DNA from: Candidatus Bathyarchaeota archaeon | Lineage (GTDB): Archaea; Thermoproteota; Bathyarchaeia; Bathyarchaeales; Bathycorpusculaceae | Assembly: GCA_963806535.1 (NCBI GenBank) | Contig: CAWDYC010000007.1 | Coordinates: 320,001-384,000 of the forward strand | Reading direction: 5' to 3' | DNA length: 64,000 nucleotides | Shown here: positions 53,738 through 63,338 of the stretch, in pieces | How positions within the stretch are numbered: the first letter of the stretch is position 1 | How the letters are laid out: each line of letters begins with the position of its first letter | Made by a program: the position numbers and the translations under genes | The notes under the pieces: model-generated | The model's database searches: none | Told to the model about the DNA's origin: nothing | What the model saw: only the letters and a program-made list of their open reading frames with translations

Positions 53738-53944
53738 CTATATCGCTGAACATTTAACCCACAATCTAAGCCACTCTAAATACTCGTCTCCATCAAGCCA
53801 CTCAACATAAGGTTTTTCCTCACTGTTTAACGGCTCATAACGTACAAAATGTCGTCCATTAGACGTGCTAAATAAAATAGCTTTGAAATCACCAAAGTCA
53901 CTGATGCCTTCAGCAATCTTTTCCATTTTGCTAAACCCGCTCAA
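53738..53944 (-). CDS. Small hypothetical protein
   Basis: Compact protein-like ORF downstream of the Cdc6 paralog. Confidence 0.45.
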   Translation of the reverse strand: MSGFSKMEKIAEGISDFGDFKAILFSTSNGRHFVRYEPLNSEEKPYVEWLDGDEYLEWLRLWVKCSAI

Positions 53945-54078
53945 GACTTGATATTCTTTGATTTAGATATAAAACTAACGCAAATCAGCACGTCTCTAAT
54001 TAGCGCTTGACGACGGGTCATTTTGGGAGAATTTGAGCCTATCGAGTAAAATTGCACCTGCTCTTTGAAGCTTTCACT

Positions 54079-54978
54079 TCAAAAATCGATTGTTTTGCCA
54101 AGATGTTTCTTTACTTTTTTGCTTAGATCATTTATTGTTGCGAGGCTTTTCACTCTCTGCGCGTTTTCTATGCCTAATTGGACATCTTCTTTGTCGATTG
54201 TCGATTTTTGACCAAATTCGGCTGACTGTCCGGCTGTGAGTAGCATTGACATGCCGAGGCGAATATCAGCCATGTCCTCGGTTGCTTTTGCAATAGTGTT
54301 TAGTAATTCATCCGAAATAACGTTTGGTTTGAAAGCCTGCTGAGCTCGGTCTTTCAGAATTTGGAATGCTTCTGATGCTGAATATGGATTAAAAAGGATC
54401 ATCATCGGCTGTAATGTACTTAAGCATCTTTCCGGAAGTTGGGTGGCTTGACTTAATTTGTTACTTATTAGGATTAGTGTTGTTTTTGGTTGCCGATTCA
54501 AGTAGTAGATTAATGGTTCTTTTTCTTTGAAGAGAATGCTTTCAACTTCATCAATGGCTATTAAAACGGGTTTTTCTTTGAGCGTGCTCTCGAAAGCTTG
54601 TTTAAGGCGAAAAAATTGCCATCCGATTTCTGGTACTTCAATATTAAGCTGTTTAAGAATTTCAAGTAAAGTATAATATGGATTTCTGGTTCTGCCCGCA
54701 TTTACGTAGGCTGCGGCAACCGGGCAATTAATATCTTTTGAGTGCCGCAGCGTTTCCTTCAGTAAATATTGAATACTTGCTGTTTTGCCTGTCCCTGGGG
54801 GTCCCCAAACAAAGAGGTTTCTCGCGCGACCCGCAGTGAAAATGCTGGAAATGTTTGAAGCCATTGAAGCTAGATACGTTTCACGGCAAAGAGGTGTTCC
54901 GCTCGGCGGGTCCGATTGTGCATCTAAGACAACAGCATCTTGAAGTATATTGCTCTTTCTTGTTTCAAACAGCGGCAT
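54079..54978 (-). CDS. Cdc6/Orc1-like AAA+ ATPase lacking the winged-helix domain
   Basis: GPPGTGKT, YVNA, IAIDEVE, LISN, F.PY, DIR; ends after the lid domain (299 aa). Confidence 0.85.
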   Translation of the reverse strand: MPLFETRKSNILQDAVVLDAQSDPPSGTPLCRETYLASMASNISSIFTAGRARNLFVWGPPGTGKTASIQYLLKETLRHSKDINCPVAAAYVNAGRTRNPYYTLLEILKQLNIEVPEIGWQFFRLKQAFESTLKEKPVLIAIDEVESILFKEKEPLIYYLNRQPKTTLILISNKLSQATQLPERCLSTLQPMMILFNPYSASEAFQILKDRAQQAFKPNVISDELLNTIAKATEDMADIRLGMSMLLTAGQSAEFGQKSTIDKEDVQLGIENAQRVKSLATINDLSKKVKKHLGKTIDF

Positions 54979-55407
54979 GACACATCATCTCGGATAGACT
55001 TAGAGAGACAGAGAGAGACGGAGGAGGGAGGTCATGGGAAGTTCTTATTTTACACCAACCTCGGCAACCTCGACTATTAAAGTTTTTATACATGAAAATG
55101 TTGCAAAAGCAATTTCATTCCATTAGATATTGTGTTTTTTGGCGCGCCTAAGCTCACAGGTTTGAAAAACGGAAATTACTCAAAAGTTAAATTGAATGCT
55201 CTGACTTATGTTTTTCAAAAATAATCGGTAACTACGTTGGAGAAAGTGGAGTTTGAATGTAGAAGATGCGAAAAAAATAGTATCTGCTGAGCAGCATAAA
55301 ATCCTCCATTTCCGTCAAAGCTGTGAAACGTTACTTACCCCTGGACCTTAGCAGAATCCTTGGCTTTTTCAATTTTTAGCCCTTCAACATATATTTTGGT
55401 CTTAATG

Positions 55408-55450
55408 TGGCGCAGAGGAAGGGATTCGAACCCCACTTTACTAGTAAAAC
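55408..55450 (-). repeat. att-like repeat 1: AT-rich arm plus tRNA 3' end
   Basis: Minus strand GTTTTACTAGTAAAGTGGGGTTCGAATCCCTTCCTCTGCGCCA. Confidence 0.85.
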
Positions 55451-55493
55451 TAACTCAATCTTTCACAGTACTTACATGGAGATTGTTCTGAAC

Positions 55494-57086
55494 TTAACGG
55501 TAGCTAAGAAATTTACTGATATTCTTTAACAGTAGATTAGAAACGTCTATAGTCTCTTCATCAATAGCTATTACGTAAACATCTATTACGTTTCCTACTT
55601 TAGTTCTCATCATCGCTTTTTGAGCAAAGTAGGGCAAGGTTGGAGCTATTGTATATAGCACAACATGAATATGGTTAGTTAGGATAATTTGTTCCAACCA
55701 TTCAGTAAGGTCTGGTGCATTAGGAAATATGTATAGATCCCCGCTTTCACCAAAATTTAGTGCTAAACTTTTTTCATCATCATTTAACTCAAAAATGTAC
55801 TTTGGAAAAACTCGTTTTCCATGATCAAACGTTGCAAAGTCCCAGTACTGATATAGATTTAGTTGAGAATCGCAAGGCGCCTTAGGAAGCAATTTTCCGT
55901 TTTCTTCAAAAAAGTCAGTGTACCCTAATGCAGCGGCACCCATTCCTTGATTAATTACCTTTTTTCGGCTTCTTGCAATTTGGTAATCTGCAAGATAGCT
56001 GCTAATTGAGCCTTGTAAGTGTTTTACCGCATTAAAAGTTTTATGAAAATCATCGAAAGTTATTGTTTCGGAGTACTTAGTCAAAACCAACAGTTTGTCA
56101 TTAATACGGATCTCGAGTTCGTTGTGGGCTATGGCGTTTCTAAGGTGTGTGTTATAACTTGATTTGATTTCAAAGGGTAAGTTTGGTTGAAGGTATTCTA
56201 CCTTATCTGCAAGACTAGATACTTTCCTCGGCTTTCCTTTGACTTTAATTGGCGGCAATTCTACCGCTGAAAAAGGAGTTTCCTGAACTAGCTTTCCGTT
56301 AATAATATTTAGTATATTAAGAAGAAAATCAAGGTAGACATCAATTTCTACTGTGTCTTGATACGTTGATAGCTCTAATTGTATTTTCATCCTCTCAGAA
56401 TTTACCTTCTTAGTGTTTATCAGACCCTCCTGCAATGATTTTGTTGAATTTTGAGATTGTAGGACCCTTAACATATCCTCTTTGCCGTAAATGTTCATTG
56501 TAGCATGGTGGCTTTTTTTCCAGTCGCAGACTGCTAAGTAGAGCTTCTCGAATTCTTCTGGGTTTGTTTTAAACGCATCATCCAAGAGTTTCTGCACTTC
56601 TGGCATGGGTTTGTATGATATGTCTGGGAAATGATTGAACAGGACTTCCATAAAATCATAATAACCTACTAGCATTTCTGCATGCGTATTAGTGGGAAAT
56701 AGACCCAGGGCCAATTTGCTCAATGCTTCAACATCCTCTGGTTTCATATTTTGTTCCGTCTTTGTTACAAACTCATCTCTTTCGTCAATAAATTCGGTAA
56801 TCTCTTCGAAACGCTTGAGGAATTGAAAGTTTAGCATTTCTTCCTCGTAACCTTTGCATACTTTGCACGGCACATTGCTAGATTGATATCTCTTCTTTAG
56901 TTGCTCTGCTCTTTCATGCGATAATAACATTAATTCGCCGCACTCACACTGGTGTACCTCAAGCTCCGGGTACTTACCTCCGAGTACATCCTTTACATGA
57001 TCCAAAAAATTGTTACTTAAAATGCCGTGACCTCTTTTTTCAAAGAGCTTCTCGAAGCTTCGCTTCATCAATTTCTTTCCACTCAT
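55494..57086 (-). CDS. Zinc-ribbon plus putative HEPN domain protein
   Basis: N-terminal CECG...CKVC; RxxxxH motif LRNAIAHN in a helical region. Confidence 0.6.
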   Translation of the reverse strand: MSGKKLMKRSFEKLFEKRGHGILSNNFLDHVKDVLGGKYPELEVHQCECGELMLLSHERAEQLKKRYQSSNVPCKVCKGYEEEMLNFQFLKRFEEITEFIDERDEFVTKTEQNMKPEDVEALSKLALGLFPTNTHAEMLVGYYDFMEVLFNHFPDISYKPMPEVQKLLDDAFKTNPEEFEKLYLAVCDWKKSHHATMNIYGKEDMLRVLQSQNSTKSLQEGLINTKKVNSERMKIQLELSTYQDTVEIDVYLDFLLNILNIINGKLVQETPFSAVELPPIKVKGKPRKVSSLADKVEYLQPNLPFEIKSSYNTHLRNAIAHNELEIRINDKLLVLTKYSETITFDDFHKTFNAVKHLQGSISSYLADYQIARSRKKVINQGMGAAALGYTDFFEENGKLLPKAPCDSQLNLYQYWDFATFDHGKRVFPKYIFELNDDEKSLALNFGESGDLYIFPNAPDLTEWLEQIILTNHIHVVLYTIAPTLPYFAQKAMMRTKVGNVIDVYVIAIDEETIDVSNLLLKNISKFLSYR

Positions 57087-57213
57087 TAATTTTCACCATT
57101 CCTATCGCTCCCTTAATTTATACTGTTAGTGGATTATTCTTTAGAGGTCTTTTATTGAGAGTATTTTTGTTTTGCGCTCCTGTAAATAATCCCAAGATTA
57201 ATCGGAGTTTGCC

Positions 57214-57243
57214 GGGAATTCGAACCCCAATTTCATATTAAGC
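57214..57243 (-). repeat. att-like repeat 2 (T-arm core plus AT-rich arm)
   Basis: Plus strand GGGAATTCGAACCCCAATTTCATATTAAGC versus GGGATTCGAACCCCAATTTAATAGTAAACC at 62712. Confidence 0.7.
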
Positions 57244-57342
57244 TATCTATTTGGAGCACAATCCATTGGTTTTTCAGTTGAACGGTTAAGTCCATCCAAT
57301 TTAATTGGCAAACAATAAATTATTTATCCTGAGAATTAACTC

Positions 57343-59149
57343 TTAATATGCCTCTAATGCTTGAAAATACGACAAGAAGTCACCAATTAAGCGGGTGCTA
57401 AATAATTCGAAAATCTCTTTAATTGTCCGCATGTCTTCTCTATCCGTCAGTATGAAAAAAATTGGAATGGTTTCTAACTCGACTTCTAAAACATTCTTTA
57501 ATGACGATAGATTATCGACTTTATCCTTAAAGCAGTCTTCGAGTCTTCTAAAAAAGTAATAGTTCACGAGCAAATTAACATTAGCATCTGGAACTTGCTT
57601 CTCTAAGAAAGCTTCCATGGTGTGAAGTTTTAACGCAGTAATGGGATTGGTTCGTGCGGAAAATAAAATATCTTGGAATACCACAGCTAAATTAGTTACA
57701 TCCTCCGATTTACTTCCAGCAAAGGCGCGCTCTAATAAATTAGAAAAAACCTTTGCAGTAACGACAATCATAGTTTTATTTATCTGATCAAGCTTCACGA
57801 AATCAAATTCCAAGTTTATTGCTTCAGAATGTTCTTTCAACCGTGCAGTAGGTGAAGTCAAATAATGCATTATATATACCATAGATTCATCAAAAAGTTT
57901 TAGCAAGGAATAGGATTTTGAAATAAAAAGAACTGTTGGAGACGATGAAGCCGAATCAAGCAATCGTTGATTTTCACGGGCACGATAGAGAATTTGGGCA
58001 GTATATTCCTTCACACGGTCATCGGGCATTAAAAGATAGCCCATAATTGCTCTGGCAGTAATAGTAGGGCTAGCGAAACTATTCCCAGCAATATCCAAAA
58101 CATTGGTCGCTGAATGAAAGATTCTTATTAAAAGAGAATCGGAAAAAGATCTCTCTAAGCCCTCGTAAAACGTTTCATATATTTTCTCTCTTAAATAATT
58201 CATTGATTCCATAAAATCTTTGTCGTCAACAAAACAAAATTCAGATTTCTTAACATCAACTTTGAAAGTATCGTTCTTAACCTTTTCAGTAAAAGAAAGG
58301 TATTTTTTTAAGTCTTCAGACTGGAGTTGAGCGCCTAAATTTGCATGATGCGCATCCCTCGCTATCCAATCAATTCTATCTCCGTTTATTCCACCAACTT
58401 TGTGATAGGTCCCCACGATGGTGGTAAGCAAGTGAATCTTTCGAAGTAGCTCTTTATTTTCGATTTCATCAAATAGTGGTCGTTTTTCTTCCATGATGAT
58501 TTGAGCAACCACTTTCTCAAGGTTAGACCTGATATCTTCATCCTCTATTTCTTTTGAACAAATATTGAGAGCTTTTTTGATCTGATCATTTTTTAGCAGC
58601 AAATATAAAGTGATTGCACTGTCCAGTTTCTTAGGGGTATAAGTTTCCATTGTTTGTCCAAGTAATTCGACAACAAAACCTGTAATTCCGTCTAAAGCGT
58701 GTCCCCATGCAGGATGACCTAAGTCATGCAATAAAGCCGCAATCCTTAGAACGACTTCTTCATCATTTGTTATTTTAAGTGCGTTTTCGTCTTCTTTAGC
58801 TGGTAAAGAAGAGAGCTTCGAAAGGATGCTGCTGCTTTTTTGCATAACTCCGTAGACTATGCTCATATCTCGTGTGGGTAGCCCCCGGAAACAAGATGTG
58901 AGTACTTGATAGTTGCCTAATCTCCCTGAGTCGCATTACCAAAGGCAATTGAACAAGATACATTATGTACTTTGGAAGATCGGTTTTCCCGTAAATAGGC
59001 AGTATTTCAGAACTCGCCTTTACCTTATCATAATCATTTATGATTTGTCCTGGTTCCCGATCATAACTTGATTCGTAATATCCTACTAATTCATAGAAAA
59101 GAGGGCCAAAAATGTTGTAGGTGTCTCGCCAGTATACTGGAGATGTCAC
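57343..59149 (-). CDS. HD-domain dNTP triphosphohydrolase (SAMHD1/YwfO/dGTPase-like), one frameshift near 58853
   Basis: RLREIRQL...FPGATHTRYEHSL(G), AALLHDLGH...GH, DRIDWIARD. Confidence 0.88.
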
Positions 59150-59535
59150 GTAGAAGTAACCACACAGGGGCTTTCTTTAACAGCTTCGTTTATCCTGATG
59201 GTGTATTGGTCAAAAAGCTTAACTCCTGTTAGATTTGCTGAATCTTCTACTACCTTAACTATTTTGTTCAATTTTGTTTGGTCTGTAATTTTTATTCTTA
59301 CTTTTTCTATATTATTCTCGTTGCCTTCTAATTGAACAATTCCGAGTTTCTGCAAGTATCTAAAATCGTCATAAAGATCTTCTTCACCATCGTGAAACAC
59401 CAGTTTCTTTTTTCGCCAAAGAATATCAAATACAAAATCGGAAAATTCTTTGAATTGCAAATCATCGCACTTTTGTGGACGCCCTTCACATTTCTCGCAA
59501 TATTTTCCAAATATATACGTTGTATAAGTCCACAT
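59146..59535 (-). CDS. Small hypothetical protein, possibly wHTH
   Basis: Overlaps the HD gene start by 4 nt; CEKC, LYDDFRYLQKLGIVQL. Confidence 0.6.
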   Translation of the reverse strand: MWTYTTYIFGKYCEKCEGRPQKCDDLQFKEFSDFVFDILWRKKKLVFHDGEEDLYDDFRYLQKLGIVQLEGNENNIEKVRIKITDQTKLNKIVKVVEDSANLTGVKLFDQYTIRINEAVKESPCVVTST

Positions 59536-59670
59536 TTCAATTTCTCCTCAATATCCTTCTATTGCATTCCGTAACTTAGGGTTTTTGGTGTGTTACAGGT
59601 TACGTAACGCATAACGCTAATTAAGTACTTTAGGTATTTATTTTTTGCCCTCAGTCCAGGTGTCCATCAA

Positions 59671-60426
59671 TTGTCTTTTGATATACTTCGCAAAGAGAAA
59701 ACCGTGGATATACTCCTAACCTTACTTAAGGGGGCTAAAGGAATTAGGGAAATCCAAGAATCAATTGGCGGCAGTAATTCAACGCTTATTCAAAGAATCA
59801 AAGAATTATTACTTGAGGAATGCTTAATCGATGATTACTTAACTGGAGAAGAATTTGGAAAAATACCGAGAAACAAACGCTTGATTCGATTAACACCTAA
59901 GGGAAAGAAAATAGTTGATTCTCTAATAGAATCTGGGTTCGTTAAACAATCTTGTCTTGAAAAAGATAGACAAAAATGGATTCTTTGCTCGCTTGATATT
60001 CTGGCAAATGTCAAAGGAAATACAAGAATGACAAAACTGCTTTTCTTGCTTCGAAATGAATTAGGGGCAAGAACAGGTAATTTTTTCAGGTTCAAACCTC
60101 ATTTTTATGGTCCATACTCAAATCAGGTGGCTGATGATCTAATTTCTATTGAAAAACTTGGGCTATTATACAAAAGAGCAATTCGTTTCAAGAAGCGAGA
60201 CTGTGGAGATGAACGAGTTGTTTACGAATATTCGCTTACAGAAAACGGCAAATCAGTCAGCCAAGAACTTTTTAAGACGCTTCAACCTGGTGAAATCAAA
60301 GCAATTCAAAGACTCAAAATTTACAATCAGATGCCCCTCGATGATTTGCTAAAATATGTTTATCGCCAATACCCGAGTTTTACCACTAAATCCAGGAATA
60401 CTCAAAAAAACCCTTGGAGAAAGTAA
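59671..60426 (+). CDS. wHTH regulator fused to YwgA/SocA(DUF4065)-like domain
   Basis: N-terminal wHTH (IRLTPKG); TRMTKLLFLL...FKPHFYGPYSNQVADDL...YSLTENG. Confidence 0.75.
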   Translation: MSFDILRKEKTVDILLTLLKGAKGIREIQESIGGSNSTLIQRIKELLLEECLIDDYLTGEEFGKIPRNKRLIRLTPKGKKIVDSLIESGFVKQSCLEKDRQKWILCSLDILANVKGNTRMTKLLFLLRNELGARTGNFFRFKPHFYGPYSNQVADDLISIEKLGLLYKRAIRFKKRDCGDERVVYEYSLTENGKSVSQELFKTLQPGEIKAIQRLKIYNQMPLDDLLKYVYRQYPSFTTKSRNTQKNPWRK

Positions 60427-60502
60427 TGTTGGATAAAAGAATGCTATTTTTATTATGTAGTATAGACTTTGAAGATTTGTTAACTTACCGCAAAAGTTTA
60501 AT

Positions 60503-61618
60503 TTGTTTCCTAACAATGAGGGTTTCCAAGAAGAAAATTCGGGGAGTGCCACTTTGTCTGAGCAGATAGTGCAAATTGTTGATAGAAATACCTTGTACAT
60601 GCACTACGATAAAGTTTACACTATGCGAGGGAGAAAGCCCTCTCTGAAGGCTTTAATTGTGTTATCAGATATTTCTGTTAACGAATTGGAAGACTGTCTA
60701 AAACGCAAGTATAGTCTACATAAACAATACTTCATAAAAGTAAATCCGTTGAGCGATTCGCTCTATAGCGTTGTTATTCAAAGGACAATTGGTATCGAAC
60801 AAATACGAGATGAAGTCTTCATCGATACTGGATGCAAAGGAATCTGGATAATTCTAACCGAGGCTGAATCCTACTTCGTTAAGCGTGTTGTCGAGTCTTT
60901 ATGCAAAAAGATGTATCCATTAATTTCAATGTTTTACCTAAACTATTCTCAGATGCGTTTTCTTACCGAAACCATTGAGAAAACCTGCGAAGGGGAAGTT
61001 GCGCTTACTTACTTTACAATAAAAAGATTCAAGGATGATGATGAAGCAACCGAGGCAATGTGGGCTAAGGACGTTGATAAGGAAATCAAAAGATTGTTGC
61101 TTGACGGATTTACTGTAAAAGTTGATAGATTGGAATTTAAGCTAAAAGACAAAGAAGGAGCAATCCTCAGAGCCCAGCTATCCAGAAAAGGGATCTGTGA
61201 ATTGAAATATGGAAGCTTCTCGTCATTTTACCAGAATGTTGTTTTTAACGCAATAGAATATGGATTAACCCAAAAGAAATTCTATTCAGAACGGCAAAGA
61301 AGCGTAGAGAAAGGAACAATACAGGTCTTTCCTCTAAAAATTGATTATGATTATTATATTCACGAAGAGCAAATGGCACGTTTTATTAAGAAAATAACTG
61401 GTAGTTATTCATGCTCTGTTGTTCATGCAGGAAATCCATATTTTGTTGCTGATTTATGTGATTACGGGGACGGTTCATCATTTGGTCTCGCTATTTTAGG
61501 AAGTTCAATCACCCTAACTCCAATTTCTAGAGCCAATGCTTCTGCAGTATGGAAATTAACTGGTGAACTTCAGGAAATATTCGGGGACGGCAAGGTCATA
61601 GATGTTAAAATGGAGTAA
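60503..61618 (+). CDS. Hypothetical protein
   Basis: Long ORF in the operon; no motif recognised; start may be ATG at 60599. Confidence 0.7.
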   Translation: MFPNNEGFQEENSGSATLSEQIVQIVDRNTLYMHYDKVYTMRGRKPSLKALIVLSDISVNELEDCLKRKYSLHKQYFIKVNPLSDSLYSVVIQRTIGIEQIRDEVFIDTGCKGIWIILTEAESYFVKRVVESLCKKMYPLISMFYLNYSQMRFLTETIEKTCEGEVALTYFTIKRFKDDDEATEAMWAKDVDKEIKRLLLDGFTVKVDRLEFKLKDKEGAILRAQLSRKGICELKYGSFSSFYQNVVFNAIEYGLTQKKFYSERQRSVEKGTIQVFPLKIDYDYYIHEEQMARFIKKITGSYSCSVVHAGNPYFVADLCDYGDGSSFGLAILGSSITLTPISRANASAVWKLTGELQEIFGDGKVIDVKME

Positions 61619-61623
61619 AAGCA

Positions 61624-62682
61624 TTGTTTAGTCTGCTAACTAAACAACAGCAGTATGAAAAGGAAATCCGAAAGTATTCAGATACAGTCGCAGTTCTGTC
61701 TGCAGTTTATAGCATTTTGAAGCAAAATCCCCCAATCGCAGAGTATGTTGGTGTTGAAACCAGACTGATGAATGAGCGTGGGAAAGAAATTGAACCAGAC
61801 TTAACTGCAATGTACGATATGCGAAGGAAAGGGTTGCTTTTCGAATTCAAGTGGTCAATGTCGTTTTCGGATGAATGGCTTAAACAAGATATTGAGAGTC
61901 TCGAAGAGTATTCAATAAAATGTTCAAAGTGGAGAAATTCCACGGGCACAGTTGATTATCATGATCTCGTCCTTGTTTGCCACATGGAGGACGCGGCAAG
62001 AGCAACGGAATTAATTACTAAAATGGCGAGTAATTCTAAATACGCGTATTTGGCTTCTGAGGGATTTGCTGTGTGGACATGGATTATTTCTGTTTCTCGG
62101 AAAGGTGGTTGTGGAGAAAACCTCATTTTGACTAGACAATATGGAAAGATACGTAATTCAGACTTAGACAATAAAACAAAACCTCCGACGGGACTGGTTC
62201 TTCCTGACGAAGCATTAACCTATCTCAGAACCTCTTTTCATTTTATTAAAATGAAGCCTCCAGTTCAATATACGATAATAAAACTAATCCAACATGTTTT
62301 CTCTCAATTCCAAGATTCAAGACGGGGCAAGGATGTTTATGAGTTAACGACTGACATGATTTACGAAAAAGCTCAGGTAATTTTCTTTTCTTGGAGAGAT
62401 ATAGATGTACAAACCGTACAAGCAAAGAGAAAATGGGTTGTTGAGGCATTAGAAATGATGTACGCGTTGAAATTAATAGGAAAGACAATTGACAAGTCTA
62501 AGTGGCTCGTACCAATACCTACAACGCGCCCTAGGATTCAAATGCAAGAGGCCATCTGTAAGAAACTAGCAAAATATACCCTGAAAGAGACTTCTCCCAG
62601 AAAACACAGATTAAAACCTCCTAAATCTGATAGCAAACCTCGACCGGGACTGAAAGCAACTACATTAATGGATTATAAATGA
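61624..62682 (+). CDS. Putative PD-(D/E)xK nuclease-domain protein
   Basis: E.....EIEPDLTAMY......LLFEFK. Confidence 0.6.
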   Translation: MFSLLTKQQQYEKEIRKYSDTVAVLSAVYSILKQNPPIAEYVGVETRLMNERGKEIEPDLTAMYDMRRKGLLFEFKWSMSFSDEWLKQDIESLEEYSIKCSKWRNSTGTVDYHDLVLVCHMEDAARATELITKMASNSKYAYLASEGFAVWTWIISVSRKGGCGENLILTRQYGKIRNSDLDNKTKPPTGLVLPDEALTYLRTSFHFIKMKPPVQYTIIKLIQHVFSQFQDSRRGKDVYELTTDMIYEKAQVIFFSWRDIDVQTVQAKRKWVVEALEMMYALKLIGKTIDKSKWLVPIPTTRPRIQMQEAICKKLAKYTLKETSPRKHRLKPPKSDSKPRPGLKATTLMDYK

Positions 62683-62697
62683 TACGATAAGTTTTGT

Positions 62698-62741
62698 TGG
62701 CGCTGGGGGAAGGGATTCGAACCCCAATTTAATAGTAAACC
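62698..62741 (-). repeat. att-like repeat 3: AT-rich arm plus tRNA 3' end
   Basis: Minus strand GGTTTACTATTAAATTGGGGTTCGAATCCCTTCCCCCAGCGCCA. Confidence 0.85.
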
Positions 62742-62835
62742 GCTAAGGTTTTGCTTACTTTCTTTCTGACAATGGTGGTAGAACGCAGCTTATCGTTAAA
62801 GCAATCGTTAGAACTAAAAATCATAAAGAAGAACC

Positions 62836-62869
62836 AAGGTTTTGAACCCATTTTCAGACTGGTAAAAAC
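62836..62869 (-). repeat. Degenerate att-like repeat 4
   Basis: Plus strand AAGGTTTTGAACCCATTTTCAGACTGGTAAAAAC resembles repeats 1 and 3. Confidence 0.4.
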
Positions 62870-63338
62870 TATTTTTGATTTCAGAAAATTGCTATTTTTA
62901 TATCGTTTTGCAGTGTTTAGAACCTTTCTTTTCAGATGTAAGTAGCAATTTTTAAAACTAAATTTGAGTTTTTTACACAGCCTGATTTTGGGTTAAAACC
63001 ATAGAGACTCAAATCGTTTCTGATTCGAATCCAACCATAAATAAATTTCTCACCTACTTGTCCTCATTTCTTGAGTTTCAGGGTTTCTACTTCTGCATCG
63101 TTTATGTATCATACTAACAAGCCGCACTCCCAACTTTTAGGTGAAGGGGGCGAACAAGAGAAGGAGCTAGAGCGATTGCTCGCTAAATATCTGGTGTAGC
63201 AGAAATAGCCTCAATCTTAAAAAACTATTTATTTCGACCCAATGGGTACGCACAAAGCATAAATGCAAACTGAATCAATATTCACGACGGGGTTCAGTTT
63301 CGCATCCAATATGCTTCCAGTTACCTAAAAAAGATTAG

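Follow-up and report, generated by a model that had tools for sequence, protein, structure and literature searches.

Short repeats derived from tRNA-Ser(CGA) in a Bathyarchaeota genome as the probable remains of a displaced, decaying array of integrase-less cassettes

What are three short, co-oriented repeats bearing the 3′ part of a tRNA doing in a stretch of archaeal chromosome in which neither a tRNA gene nor an integrase gene is found? The question is raised by a 64,000-nt window, which here means the whole stretch of DNA that was analysed, from the genome of a Candidatus Bathyarchaeota archaeon. This archaeal genome, designated G000, comprises 2.95 Mb with 41% GC on 12 contigs, and the window corresponds to C7:320001-384000; in what follows, Gnnn denotes genomes (G000 and its relatives in the genus), Cn denotes contigs and Lnnn denotes fetched loci. 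The best explanation for the region between about 53990 and 62850 is that it constitutes a detached, partly decayed segment of a module array, of a kind that builds behind a single tRNA-Ser(CGA) gene and before an ACL-like operon. Such arrays probably arise by site-specific tandem accretion of integrase-less cassettes resembling cis-mobilizable elements (CIMEs), with the recombinase acting in trans, and the copy in the window would be a displaced and decaying one.

The three repeats, termed R1, R2 and R3, are arranged as follows:

55408 to 55450, minus strand: R1, with arm A TTTACTAGTAAAGT, T-arm core, decayed acceptor and GCCA
57214 to 57243, minus strand: R2, with degenerate arm CTTAATATGAAATT, core GGGGTTCGAATTCC and truncated acceptor
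62698 to 62741, minus strand: R3, with arm A TTTACTATTAAATT, core, acceptor carrying one extra C, and GCCA

A repeat search of the window returned a direct-repeat family with three copies (55417-55448, 57211-57242 and 62708-62739), which share 72-94% identity over 32 nt. The 32-mer of R1, allowing at most three mismatches, occurs at two sites in the window against 0.00 expected from 100 shuffles, while the 14-nt core GGRATTCGAACCCC, allowing at most one mismatch, occurs at three sites against 0.02 expected from shuffles. Read on the minus strand, each repeat begins with an arm, which is followed by GGGGTTCGAATCCC, the acceptor 3′ strand (truncated in R2) and GCCA. The consensus arm, arm A (TTTACTRGTAAANT), is a palindromic 14-nt sequence that does not belong to a tRNA and precedes the tRNA T-arm and acceptor. 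A preliminary description of this DNA had already reported co-oriented repeats made of a T-arm core and a non-tRNA arm, which the three-copy family and the shuffle statistics bear out, and its distances are likewise correct, with the stop codon at 55494 lying 43 nt from R1 and that at 62682 lying 15 nt from R3.

The source of the repeats is found on another contig. The host tRNA-Ser(CGA) gene, which contains an intron, is located at C3:472263-472387, and its 3′ end reads GGGGTTCGAATCCCTTCCCCGGCGCCA. Compared with this end, R1 shows two substitutions, R3 has one substitution and an additional C, and R2 is missing part of the acceptor; all three match it from the T-stem onward, as direct repeats of the tRNA type do. 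The few differences of R1 and R3 from this end point to one tRNA source rather than several, and R1 to R3 are decayed copies of the 3′ end of tRNA-Ser(CGA). The different, Ser-like acceptor strands that had been ascribed to R1 and R3 are accordingly to be read in another way: the serine origin stands, the involvement of several tRNAs does not, and the proposed comparison of the acceptor strands with the host tRNAs leads to the gene on C3.

Since the repeats encode a T-arm, an acceptor strand, G73 and CCA, they could also be regarded as functional RNA genes, either as split tRNA-Ser 3′ halves or as the 3′ ends of tRNA-like transcripts, and split tRNA genes are known in some archaea. This explanation is extremely improbable. 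The genome offers 0 candidates for a 5′ half (a matching acceptor together with a Ser-type D-arm) for R1 or R3, all four tRNA-Ser isoacceptor genes are present elsewhere in G000, ARAGORN detects no tRNA gene in the window, and no Rfam family was matched at the repeats or in the window. Moreover, the indels and substitutions of the acceptors differ between the copies, and the sites are homology breakpoints between genomes. The split-tRNA reading was ruled out on the missing 5′ halves and the negative ARAGORN and Rfam results.

If the repeats are attachment (att) sites, a target tRNA and an integrase would be looked for nearby. The 13 kb between the window and the contig end harbor an ammonium transporter, a urea transporter, a urease operon, a transposase and a methyltransferase, and no tRNA. 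A search of G000 for PF00589 gave eight matches, none of them on C7, and Pfam and NCBIfam scans of the open reading frames (ORFs) in the modules of the window revealed no recombinase family. The absence of an integrase and of an intact tRNA, which had been noted from the window itself, thus holds to the end of the contig. Neither an intact target tRNA at the end of the element nor an integrase gene inside it, both being typical of tRNA-targeting elements, is present in the window; the tRNA lies on C3 in this genome, and in relatives it stands at the end of the array.

The tRNA-Ser(CGA) locus on C3 is itself occupied. C3:472263-494547 is a classic island, which consists of the tRNA gene, a decayed integrase (472533-473589), about 21 kb of DNA and a 3′ fragment of the tRNA (493230-493257). 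This fragment bears a different arm, ending in ...GATATCGCCTCTTTCTCT and termed type B. The tRNA is also used, therefore, by a type-B element whose integrase is decayed and whose arm is not arm A. Beyond the type-B fragment lies a 577-nt remnant of the 3′ end of the ACL gene, which is 77% identical to that of the window, and the DNA past this remnant has no match in five relatives.

Comparison with relatives reveals the ancestral arrangement of the locus. The 5-10 kb upstream of tRNA-Ser(CGA) are conserved among C3 of G000, G001, G002, G004, G038, G041, G049 and G101. G002 has only 39 nt between the end of its intact tRNA-Ser(CGA) and the ACL flank, measured to the position that matches window 53979; the corresponding interval of G101 is occupied by one fragment and one module of 2.6 kb. 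In G125, five fragments are found within 4 kb behind one tRNA, and one of the intervals consists of an Orc1/Cdc6-like gene alone. An intact tRNA followed by one to three arm-A fragments occurs in G038 (fragments at L012 11760, 14375 and 18012), G041 (L018 10378, 12584 and 15887), G049, G059 and G101, and also on metagenome contigs. The tRNA of G125 (L045 7534-7679) was called by ARAGORN as tRNA-Ala(GGC) with an intron; its 3′ half and its position are those of tRNA-Ser(CGA), and the label is probably a mis-call caused by the intron. At the left side of the window array, two features are to be compared with these loci:

53764 to 53988, no strand assigned: conserved stretch that follows the ACL-like operon and bounds the variable region on the left
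54079 to 54978, minus strand: one-gene module encoding an Orc1/Cdc6-like AAA+ protein of 299 aa (Pfam Cdc6_lid and AAA_22)

The first is homologous at 75-78% in G125, G101, G013 and G002, and it represents the ancestral far flank of the tRNA-Ser(CGA) hotspot. The Orc1/Cdc6-like protein matches NCBIfam TIGR02928 at 158.5 bits, which is below the cut-off, and it is shorter than the full-length Orc1/Cdc6 models that it matches (366-415 positions). Its homologue in G125 (77%) is located between the tRNA-Ser fragments at L045 9643 and 10916, and G013 shares the segment with ACL, Cdc6 and flank at 86-93% identity up to the T-arm of R1. No degenerate fragment was detected between the ACL-like operon and the Cdc6 gene at up to 9 mismatches of 27. 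R1 is the last att fragment of the array, adjoining the chromosomal flank, and the Orc1/Cdc6-like module to its left belongs to the same array. Taken together, the loci of the relatives present an ancestral layout of conserved flank, tRNA-Ser(CGA), variable modules and ACL-like operon; this layout and the Cdc6 interval of G125 indicate that window 53990-62850 is the ACL-proximal part of such an array. The preliminary description had let the feature start at 55408; with the Cdc6 module included, the array begins near 53990. In the same sense, its idea of stacked tRNA-derived att sites is supported by the arrays that commonly stand behind an intact tRNA-Ser(CGA) in the genus.

The behavior of the cassettes was examined at the points where related genomes part. 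G000 and G056 share 93% identity up to where the HD-domain gene ends and onward across the arm and core of R2; past the core they are unrelated. G000 and G013 match at 93% from the flank through the acceptor into the 3′ T-arm, after which arm A in the former faces arm B in the latter. These breakpoints within the core place the probable exchange point within the T-loop and 3′ T-stem. The presence or absence of modules is thus polymorphic with breakpoints at the att core, and the content of the modules varies between genomes at the repeats. The condition under which the preliminary description would have been refuted, an intact tRNA and integrase just beyond the window together with unvarying module content, therefore does not apply.

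When the fetched loci were cut at the cores, 52 complete intervals were obtained, including 33 that end in arm A (at most two mismatches of TTTACTAGTAAA), 31 of which are distinct. Each cassette ends in a 41-42-nt site, which is composed of the arm TTTACTRGTAAANT, the tRNA T-arm and the acceptor strand, and the cassettes are 0.7-8 kb in size with one to seven ORFs of at least 100 aa each. Eighteen homologous pairs of complete modules were found. Three of these are 100% identical with identical neighbors, being one organism sampled twice; one (L062/L087) has the downstream neighbor in common, and 14 of the 18 have no homologous neighbor on either side. Examples of such changed surroundings are the ZnuABC/NikR cassette, which takes third place in G038 but leads the array in G041, and the cassette with the HEPN gene, last in the window and first in G004. 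The order of the cassettes is permuted as well: the MazF/antitoxin and CBS-protein cassettes stand in opposite order in L071 and L127. These opposite orders cannot result from sequential insertion at the tRNA alone, unless the cassettes were acquired independently.

The distribution of the site was determined by pattern searches. The pattern TTWMYNRKTAAANYSKGGYTCGAATCCC matches in 10 of the 101 genus genomes with no match of the reversed-pattern control, and TTTACYRGTAAANYGGGGYTCGAATCCC matches 21 stretches among 185,579 species, all titled Bathyarchaeia or Bathyarchaeota. In metagenomes, the latter pattern yielded 95 stretches, 80 of which were fetched, and the arm-and-core pattern matched no stretch in viral contigs. 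A census independent of the arm, based on the 22-mer TTCGAATCCCTTCCCCGGCGCC in 120 genus genomes, gave 105 sites, which were sorted by the author's reading of the 19 nt preceding the 22-mer into 86 tRNA bodies and 19 fragments, an exact-match count that decayed sites such as R1-R3 escape. Nine of the 19 fragments carry arm A, five carry arm B and five another arm. Over 109 distinct arm-A sites, no position upstream of the arm is conserved in more than 45%. The search for arm, core and cognate recombinase that had been suggested at the outset succeeded for the motif, which recurs in the genus, and failed for the recombinase, none being linked to arm A.

Two explanations of these arrays have to be compared at this point. 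Besides accretion in trans, the modules could be ordinary decayed islands, each of them originally a full element whose integrase and backbone were later deleted, with nothing ever mobilized in trans. The tRNA-Ser(CGA) gene does host classic elements with an integrase next to the tRNA and a type-B arm at the far end (C3 of G000, G013:C19:46148 and L053/L102), an arm-A module in L040/L099 retains an N-terminal remnant of an integrase, and the sites and one gene of the window are decaying. On the other side, the 33 complete arm-A intervals yielded no detected integrase, many intervals measure only 0.7-3 kb and contain one or two intact genes, the 14-nt arm is intact though everything upstream of it differs, and the cassette order is permuted. 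Decay would furthermore require the independent and complete loss of the integrase from all of these modules, and the explanation is accordingly given a low probability.

The screens behind this comparison were of several kinds, and they support the preliminary view that the modules between the repeats lack an integrase. PF00589 was not found inside the arrays of G038, G041, G101, G059 and G049 at E<=0.05; over ten genomes no match lay inside an array, and the only matches at array edges were decayed type-B integrases past the last fragment of G041. G071 has no PF00589 match in the entire genome. A local integrase hidden Markov model (HMM) applied to 1284 ORFs of 101 loci gave five matches, none within 23 complete arm-A modules, and three of the five occupy the type-B position, immediately past a fragment, the other two being remnants in L040 and L099. 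Of 102 ORFs listed from arm-A modules, 25 were left out (L057/L094 duplicates and ORFs already scanned) and 77 were scanned, and no recombinase appears among the families with at least two members listed for them, which are the first 25 of 131 families. Thus, no integrase is detected in the 33 complete arm-A modules (31 distinct) by screens of limited sensitivity.

Several points weigh against accretion of integrase-less cassettes in trans. The local HMM was built from 12 sequences, so that the integrase screens are limited in sensitivity, and a single PF00589 match among the 77 ORFs may have escaped, given that only the first 25 of the 131 families were seen. In the near-identical loci L040 and L099, an N-terminal integrase remnant of 158-160 aa lies within modules that terminate in arm A and run off the contig at their upstream end, and it follows that at least some arm-A elements once had an integrase. 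The conservation of the arm in the fetched loci is partly circular because the search pattern includes the arm. L071 and L127, with their opposite cassette orders, are metagenome contigs, in which the 42-nt repeats could cause chimeric joins. The ends of the cassettes are not always clean, since the Znu cassette of G038 and G041 has an unrelated last stretch of about 200 nt before the arm. Finally, no cognate integrase for arm A was found and no excised circle or empty-site read was seen, no sequencing run with the array being listed, and for this reason the case for mobility in trans is drawn wholly from comparative patterns.

Two candidates for the arm-A enzyme were tried and rejected. In G101 and G038, an integrase gene situated some 11 kb upstream of the tRNA borders another island, and the relatives of the L040/L099 remnant, which are full-length in G096, G003 and G076, are not near a tRNA-Ser or an arm-A site. 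The former encodes an integrase with a zinc ribbon at its N-terminus (445 aa in G101) at the far edge of the conserved flank; it is represented at C3:461519-461734 of G000 by its last 72 aa only, near 124139 on C1 of G101 and near 2332 on C155 of G038, and it looks like the border of a second variable region.

On the preferred reading of tandem accretion, a circular cassette bearing arm, core and P′ would recombine with the tRNA inside the T-loop and 3′ T-stem, the reaction being catalyzed by a tyrosine-type integrase supplied in trans. The tRNA would be restored and the previous 3′ end would be pushed outward as a fragment, so that the array would grow on the side of the tRNA, and recombination between neighboring cores could circularize and release single cassettes. 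The 12-nt palindrome may be the protein-binding part of the cassette site. Mobilization in trans is our inference from these comparisons, and the candidate enzymes would be the integrases of type-B elements, which share the core and have an arm unrelated to arm A. Circular contigs were looked for, and no terminal direct repeat of 15-200 nt was present in 101 loci, many of which are parts of longer contigs. In G000 the window array is probably a fossil and the local array is most likely inactive, because the tRNA is separated from it on C3, the acceptors are decayed, R2 is truncated and one gene is frameshifted.

Among described systems, the ssrA islands of Dehalococcoides are the closest case. 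McMurdie et al. (2011, PMC3146451) describe islands that stand in tandem behind the tmRNA gene, each delimited by a 20-bp direct repeat copied from the gene's 3′ end. Every repeat is directly preceded by a conserved motif of about 15 bp that has no counterpart in the gene, and the insertion point is assigned to the T-loop; 16 islands carry a serine-integrase module (DsiB), and 15 islands without an integration module are proposed to be cis-mobilizable and to have moved by accretion. The tandem arrangement, the 3′-end repeats, the upstream motif, the T-loop and the integrase-less units are alike in the two systems. Unlike the bacterial tmRNA, the target here is an archaeal tRNA-Ser(CGA), and the modules are smaller (0.7-8 kb); in contrast with a serine integrase in 16 islands, 0 of 33 modules have a detected integrase, and the candidates nearby are tyrosine recombinases. 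Archaeal precedents are provided by elements of Thaumarchaeota, which integrate into the 3′-distal part of tRNA genes and, where a tyrosine recombinase is involved, form arrays re-using one site (Krupovic et al. 2019, PMC6563490). Archaeal tRNA 3′ integration and arrays are common to both; in the parts of that survey at hand, the elements are complex and multigenic, integrase-less units of cassette size are not described, and Bathyarchaeia fall outside its range.

The two complete modules of the window (55451-57213 and 57244-62697) are flanked by att sites and contain, by Pfam, PADLOC and NCBIfam, no genes for integration or transfer, which is the composition expected of CIMEs and of accretion. 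CIMEs of the integrative and conjugative elements (ICEs) of Streptococcus occur in tandem with integrase-bearing elements at the same site, and they are usually single ICE decay products beside a live ICE. Unlike CIMEs, the present modules join a single conserved arm to numerous cargos that are unrelated to one another, and a live partner element bearing this arm was not found.

A further comparison is with the integron, in which short unrelated cassettes each end in a conserved recombination site and the recombinase lies outside the cassette. In the corresponding explanation, a dedicated platform with a fixed host recombinase would reserve tRNA-Ser(CGA) for capture, and arm and core would act like attC. 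Here too a cassette array is seen in which each cassette ends in the same site: arrays contain as many as five short cassettes, modules with unrelated contents carry a conserved 42-nt site, the spectrum of cargo (a toxin-antitoxin pair, small enzymes, transporters, regulators and unknowns) resembles that of chromosomal integrons, and several arrays adjoin a type-B integrase gene at their end (G041, L053 and L102). The recombinase itself speaks against it, for no conserved recombinase gene stands beside the tRNA, no IntI-type integrase or other recombinase was found next to the tRNA in G000, G125 and G101, no integrase lies between tRNA and ACL in the arrays of G125 and G101, and the integrase gene that G101 and G038 carry some 11 kb upstream delimits a different variable region, with only a remnant of 72 aa left in G000. 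The attC consensus consists of GTTRRRY/RYYYAAC with paired R″/L″ and L′/R′ boxes, and no GTTRRRY/RYYYAAC pair was seen at the site, nor is there an attI beside an integrase or the stem structure of an attC. Unlike integrons, the site is tRNA-derived, the cassettes have their own regulators and genes on both strands, and new cassettes would enter at the tRNA rather than next to an integrase. An integron-like platform is thus quite unlikely, and the integron-style stacking first suggested for this array fails in the strict sense, the cassettes being self-contained. The system is filed as a variant of site-specific accretion, which resembles an integron or CIME array and fails the integron's defining tests. 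Keyword searches of the literature, in which the integron papers listed were bacterial only, retrieved no description of tRNA-Ser cassette arrays in Bathyarchaeia, their scope being such that supplements, which may list related cases, lay outside it.

The cargo of the arrays was surveyed by family. Twenty ORFs from the arrays of G038, G041, G101, G059 and G049 include ZnuABC with NikR, SDR, OYE, MBL-fold, DinB, cupin and TrmB proteins, a PAS histidine kinase, a hybrid-cluster protein with HTH_10, an ABC-2 transporter with MarR, CDC48 and Ig-like repeats. Among the families with at least two members listed for the 77 module ORFs are ABC transporters, TrmB/PadR/AsnC regulators, SDR, GDC-P, FtsX and PemK, and ten more ORFs comprise CBS, PemK, MarR, STAND-TPR, MFS, AsnC and FMN reductase. 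Across 97 scanned ORFs the cargo is mostly ordinary accessory genes, namely transporters, regulators, redox enzymes and a MazF pair. The preliminary label of a defence array is not upheld by this cargo, and a "defence" flavor remains plausible for the window's own copy, in which the modules contain the following genes:

55494 to 57086, minus strand: one-gene cassette for a 530-aa protein (ORF530), which combines a Cys4 zinc ribbon at the N-terminus with a HEPN-like domain
57343 to 59149, minus strand: HD-domain gene with a dNTP-triphosphohydrolase-like N-terminus (Pfam HD, E 1.1e-4; weak dGTPase models)
59146 to 59535, minus strand: 129-aa ORF without a family match
59671 to 60426, plus strand: winged helix-turn-helix protein (Pfam HxlR, E 1.2e-4) with a C-terminal PDC-M19A-like domain (PADLOC PDC-M19A, E 7.9e-15)
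60503 to 61618, plus strand: 371-aa ORF without a Pfam, PADLOC or NCBIfam family
61624 to 62682, plus strand: 352-aa ORF without a Pfam, PADLOC or NCBIfam family

This content agrees with the one-gene module between R1 and R2 and the five-gene module between R2 and R3 that had been described before. ORF530 belongs to a family of 20 members, in which C47/C49/C74/C77 and R316-N-A-x-A-H321 are invariant (17 aligned), and a homologue (75%) lies directly behind the intact tRNA-Ser(CGA) in G004. It has no match in Pfam, PADLOC or NCBIfam, Foldseek against the PDB gave nothing at E<=0.001, and in the protein atlas only unnamed clusters below the recognition level were retrieved. In its AlphaFold model (mean predicted local distance difference test score 75), the best VIA-align neighbors of residues 168-372 are HEPN proteins, namely AbiA (Z 8.0) and the toxin 7ae2 (Z 6.8), followed by HI0074 (Z 6.6) and Csm6 (Z 5.4), values that are in the middling range for helical domains. 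The Rx4-6H motif of HEPN is present as R316-x4-H321 beside these structural neighbors, and from the model we read ORF530 as a putative zinc-ribbon/HEPN protein.

The HD-domain gene has one frameshift near 58800-58860, an intact 605-aa homologue in G068 aligning to two frames of the window, and this could be a pseudogene or an assembly error. A homologue of the winged helix-turn-helix/PDC-M19A protein is present in the G013 island, and the 371-aa and 352-aa genes have a DNA homologue of both together (69%) in G095. In the 352-aa ORF, an EPD...EFK motif is, by our own reading, a possible signature of a PD-(D/E)xK nuclease.

The right edge of the array is formed by two further features:

62742 to 62846, minus strand: end of a further arm-A element of about 100 nt, truncated in G000 and recognized by homology
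62838 to 62985, no strand assigned: palindromic (inverted) repeat resembling a miniature inverted-repeat transposable element (MITE), situated at the array break and containing R4

R3 together with 62742-62846 is 75-91% identical to element ends in G059, G071, G041, G109 and G077. The MITE-like repeat is about 150 nt long, starts with the conserved GGTTTTGAACCC and exists in four copies in G000 (C7:382864 in the window, C7:6989-7120, C10:103081-103217 and C11:170535-170600) and in many across the genus. R4 (62836-62869), which had been taken for a degenerate fourth repeat, was ruled out as an att copy, since it is the edge of this MITE-like repeat. From R3 rightward, the order is thus the element end of about 100 nt, the MITE-like repeat, a second dispersed repeat and the ammonium transporter gene. 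On both C7 and C10, the MITE-like repeat lies less than 100 nt from an arm-A-like site. The second dispersed repeat (window 62989-63291) is about 130-300 nt long, with dozens of 72-83% matches across the genus genomes; it also occurs within the tRNA-Ser array of G125 and corresponds to no Rfam family.

Related sequences are scattered elsewhere in G000. The arm TTTACTGGTAAAAT is found at C9:168100-168133 and C10:103298-103331 (minus strand), where it is followed by a GC-rich hairpin GGGCTGGGATCCCCCAGCCC and no T-arm; at the C9 site, a tRNA-Ser(GGA)-like acceptor end follows the hairpin. No proteins are common to the window array and the sites at C9:168100 and C10:103298. In addition, 32 match rows, in which some places appear under more than one tRNA, represent extra tRNA 3′ ends outside the called tRNAs, for example at C3:142773, C3:193843, C3:195648, C5:158120 and C9:86301. 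Several of them are found at a distance of 1-11 kb from the corresponding tRNA (Thr-GGT, Val-TAC twice, Cys and Arg-TCT). Small att-bounded tRNA islands seem to be common in G000, and some of these matches may be intron-containing tRNAs missed by ARAGORN.

The window itself carries a modest message, as it holds a displaced, decaying piece of an array and not an active system. The wider interest lies in its relatives. Bathyarchaeia are abundant and uncultured, and little is known about their gene exchange; a conserved 42-nt site on dozens of unrelated small modules points to a specific route, open to testing, by which genes are gained at one place in the chromosome, and provides at the same time a sequence handle with which the mobile accessory genes of the lineage can be mined from metagenomes. 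The idea of cis-mobilizable elements and accretion, known from bacterial tmRNA and ICE sites, is hereby extended to an archaeal tRNA, with integrase-less units being the rule. More tentatively, and as a possibility that we hold to be somewhat less probable than its opposite, Bathyarchaeia might run a tRNA-anchored capture system, in which a recombinase encoded elsewhere would insert, excise and reshuffle integrase-less cassettes from a pool, each with its 42-nt site, at the single tRNA-Ser(CGA) gene; if this were true, the interval from the tRNA to ACL would be the lineage's dedicated rack for accessory genes.

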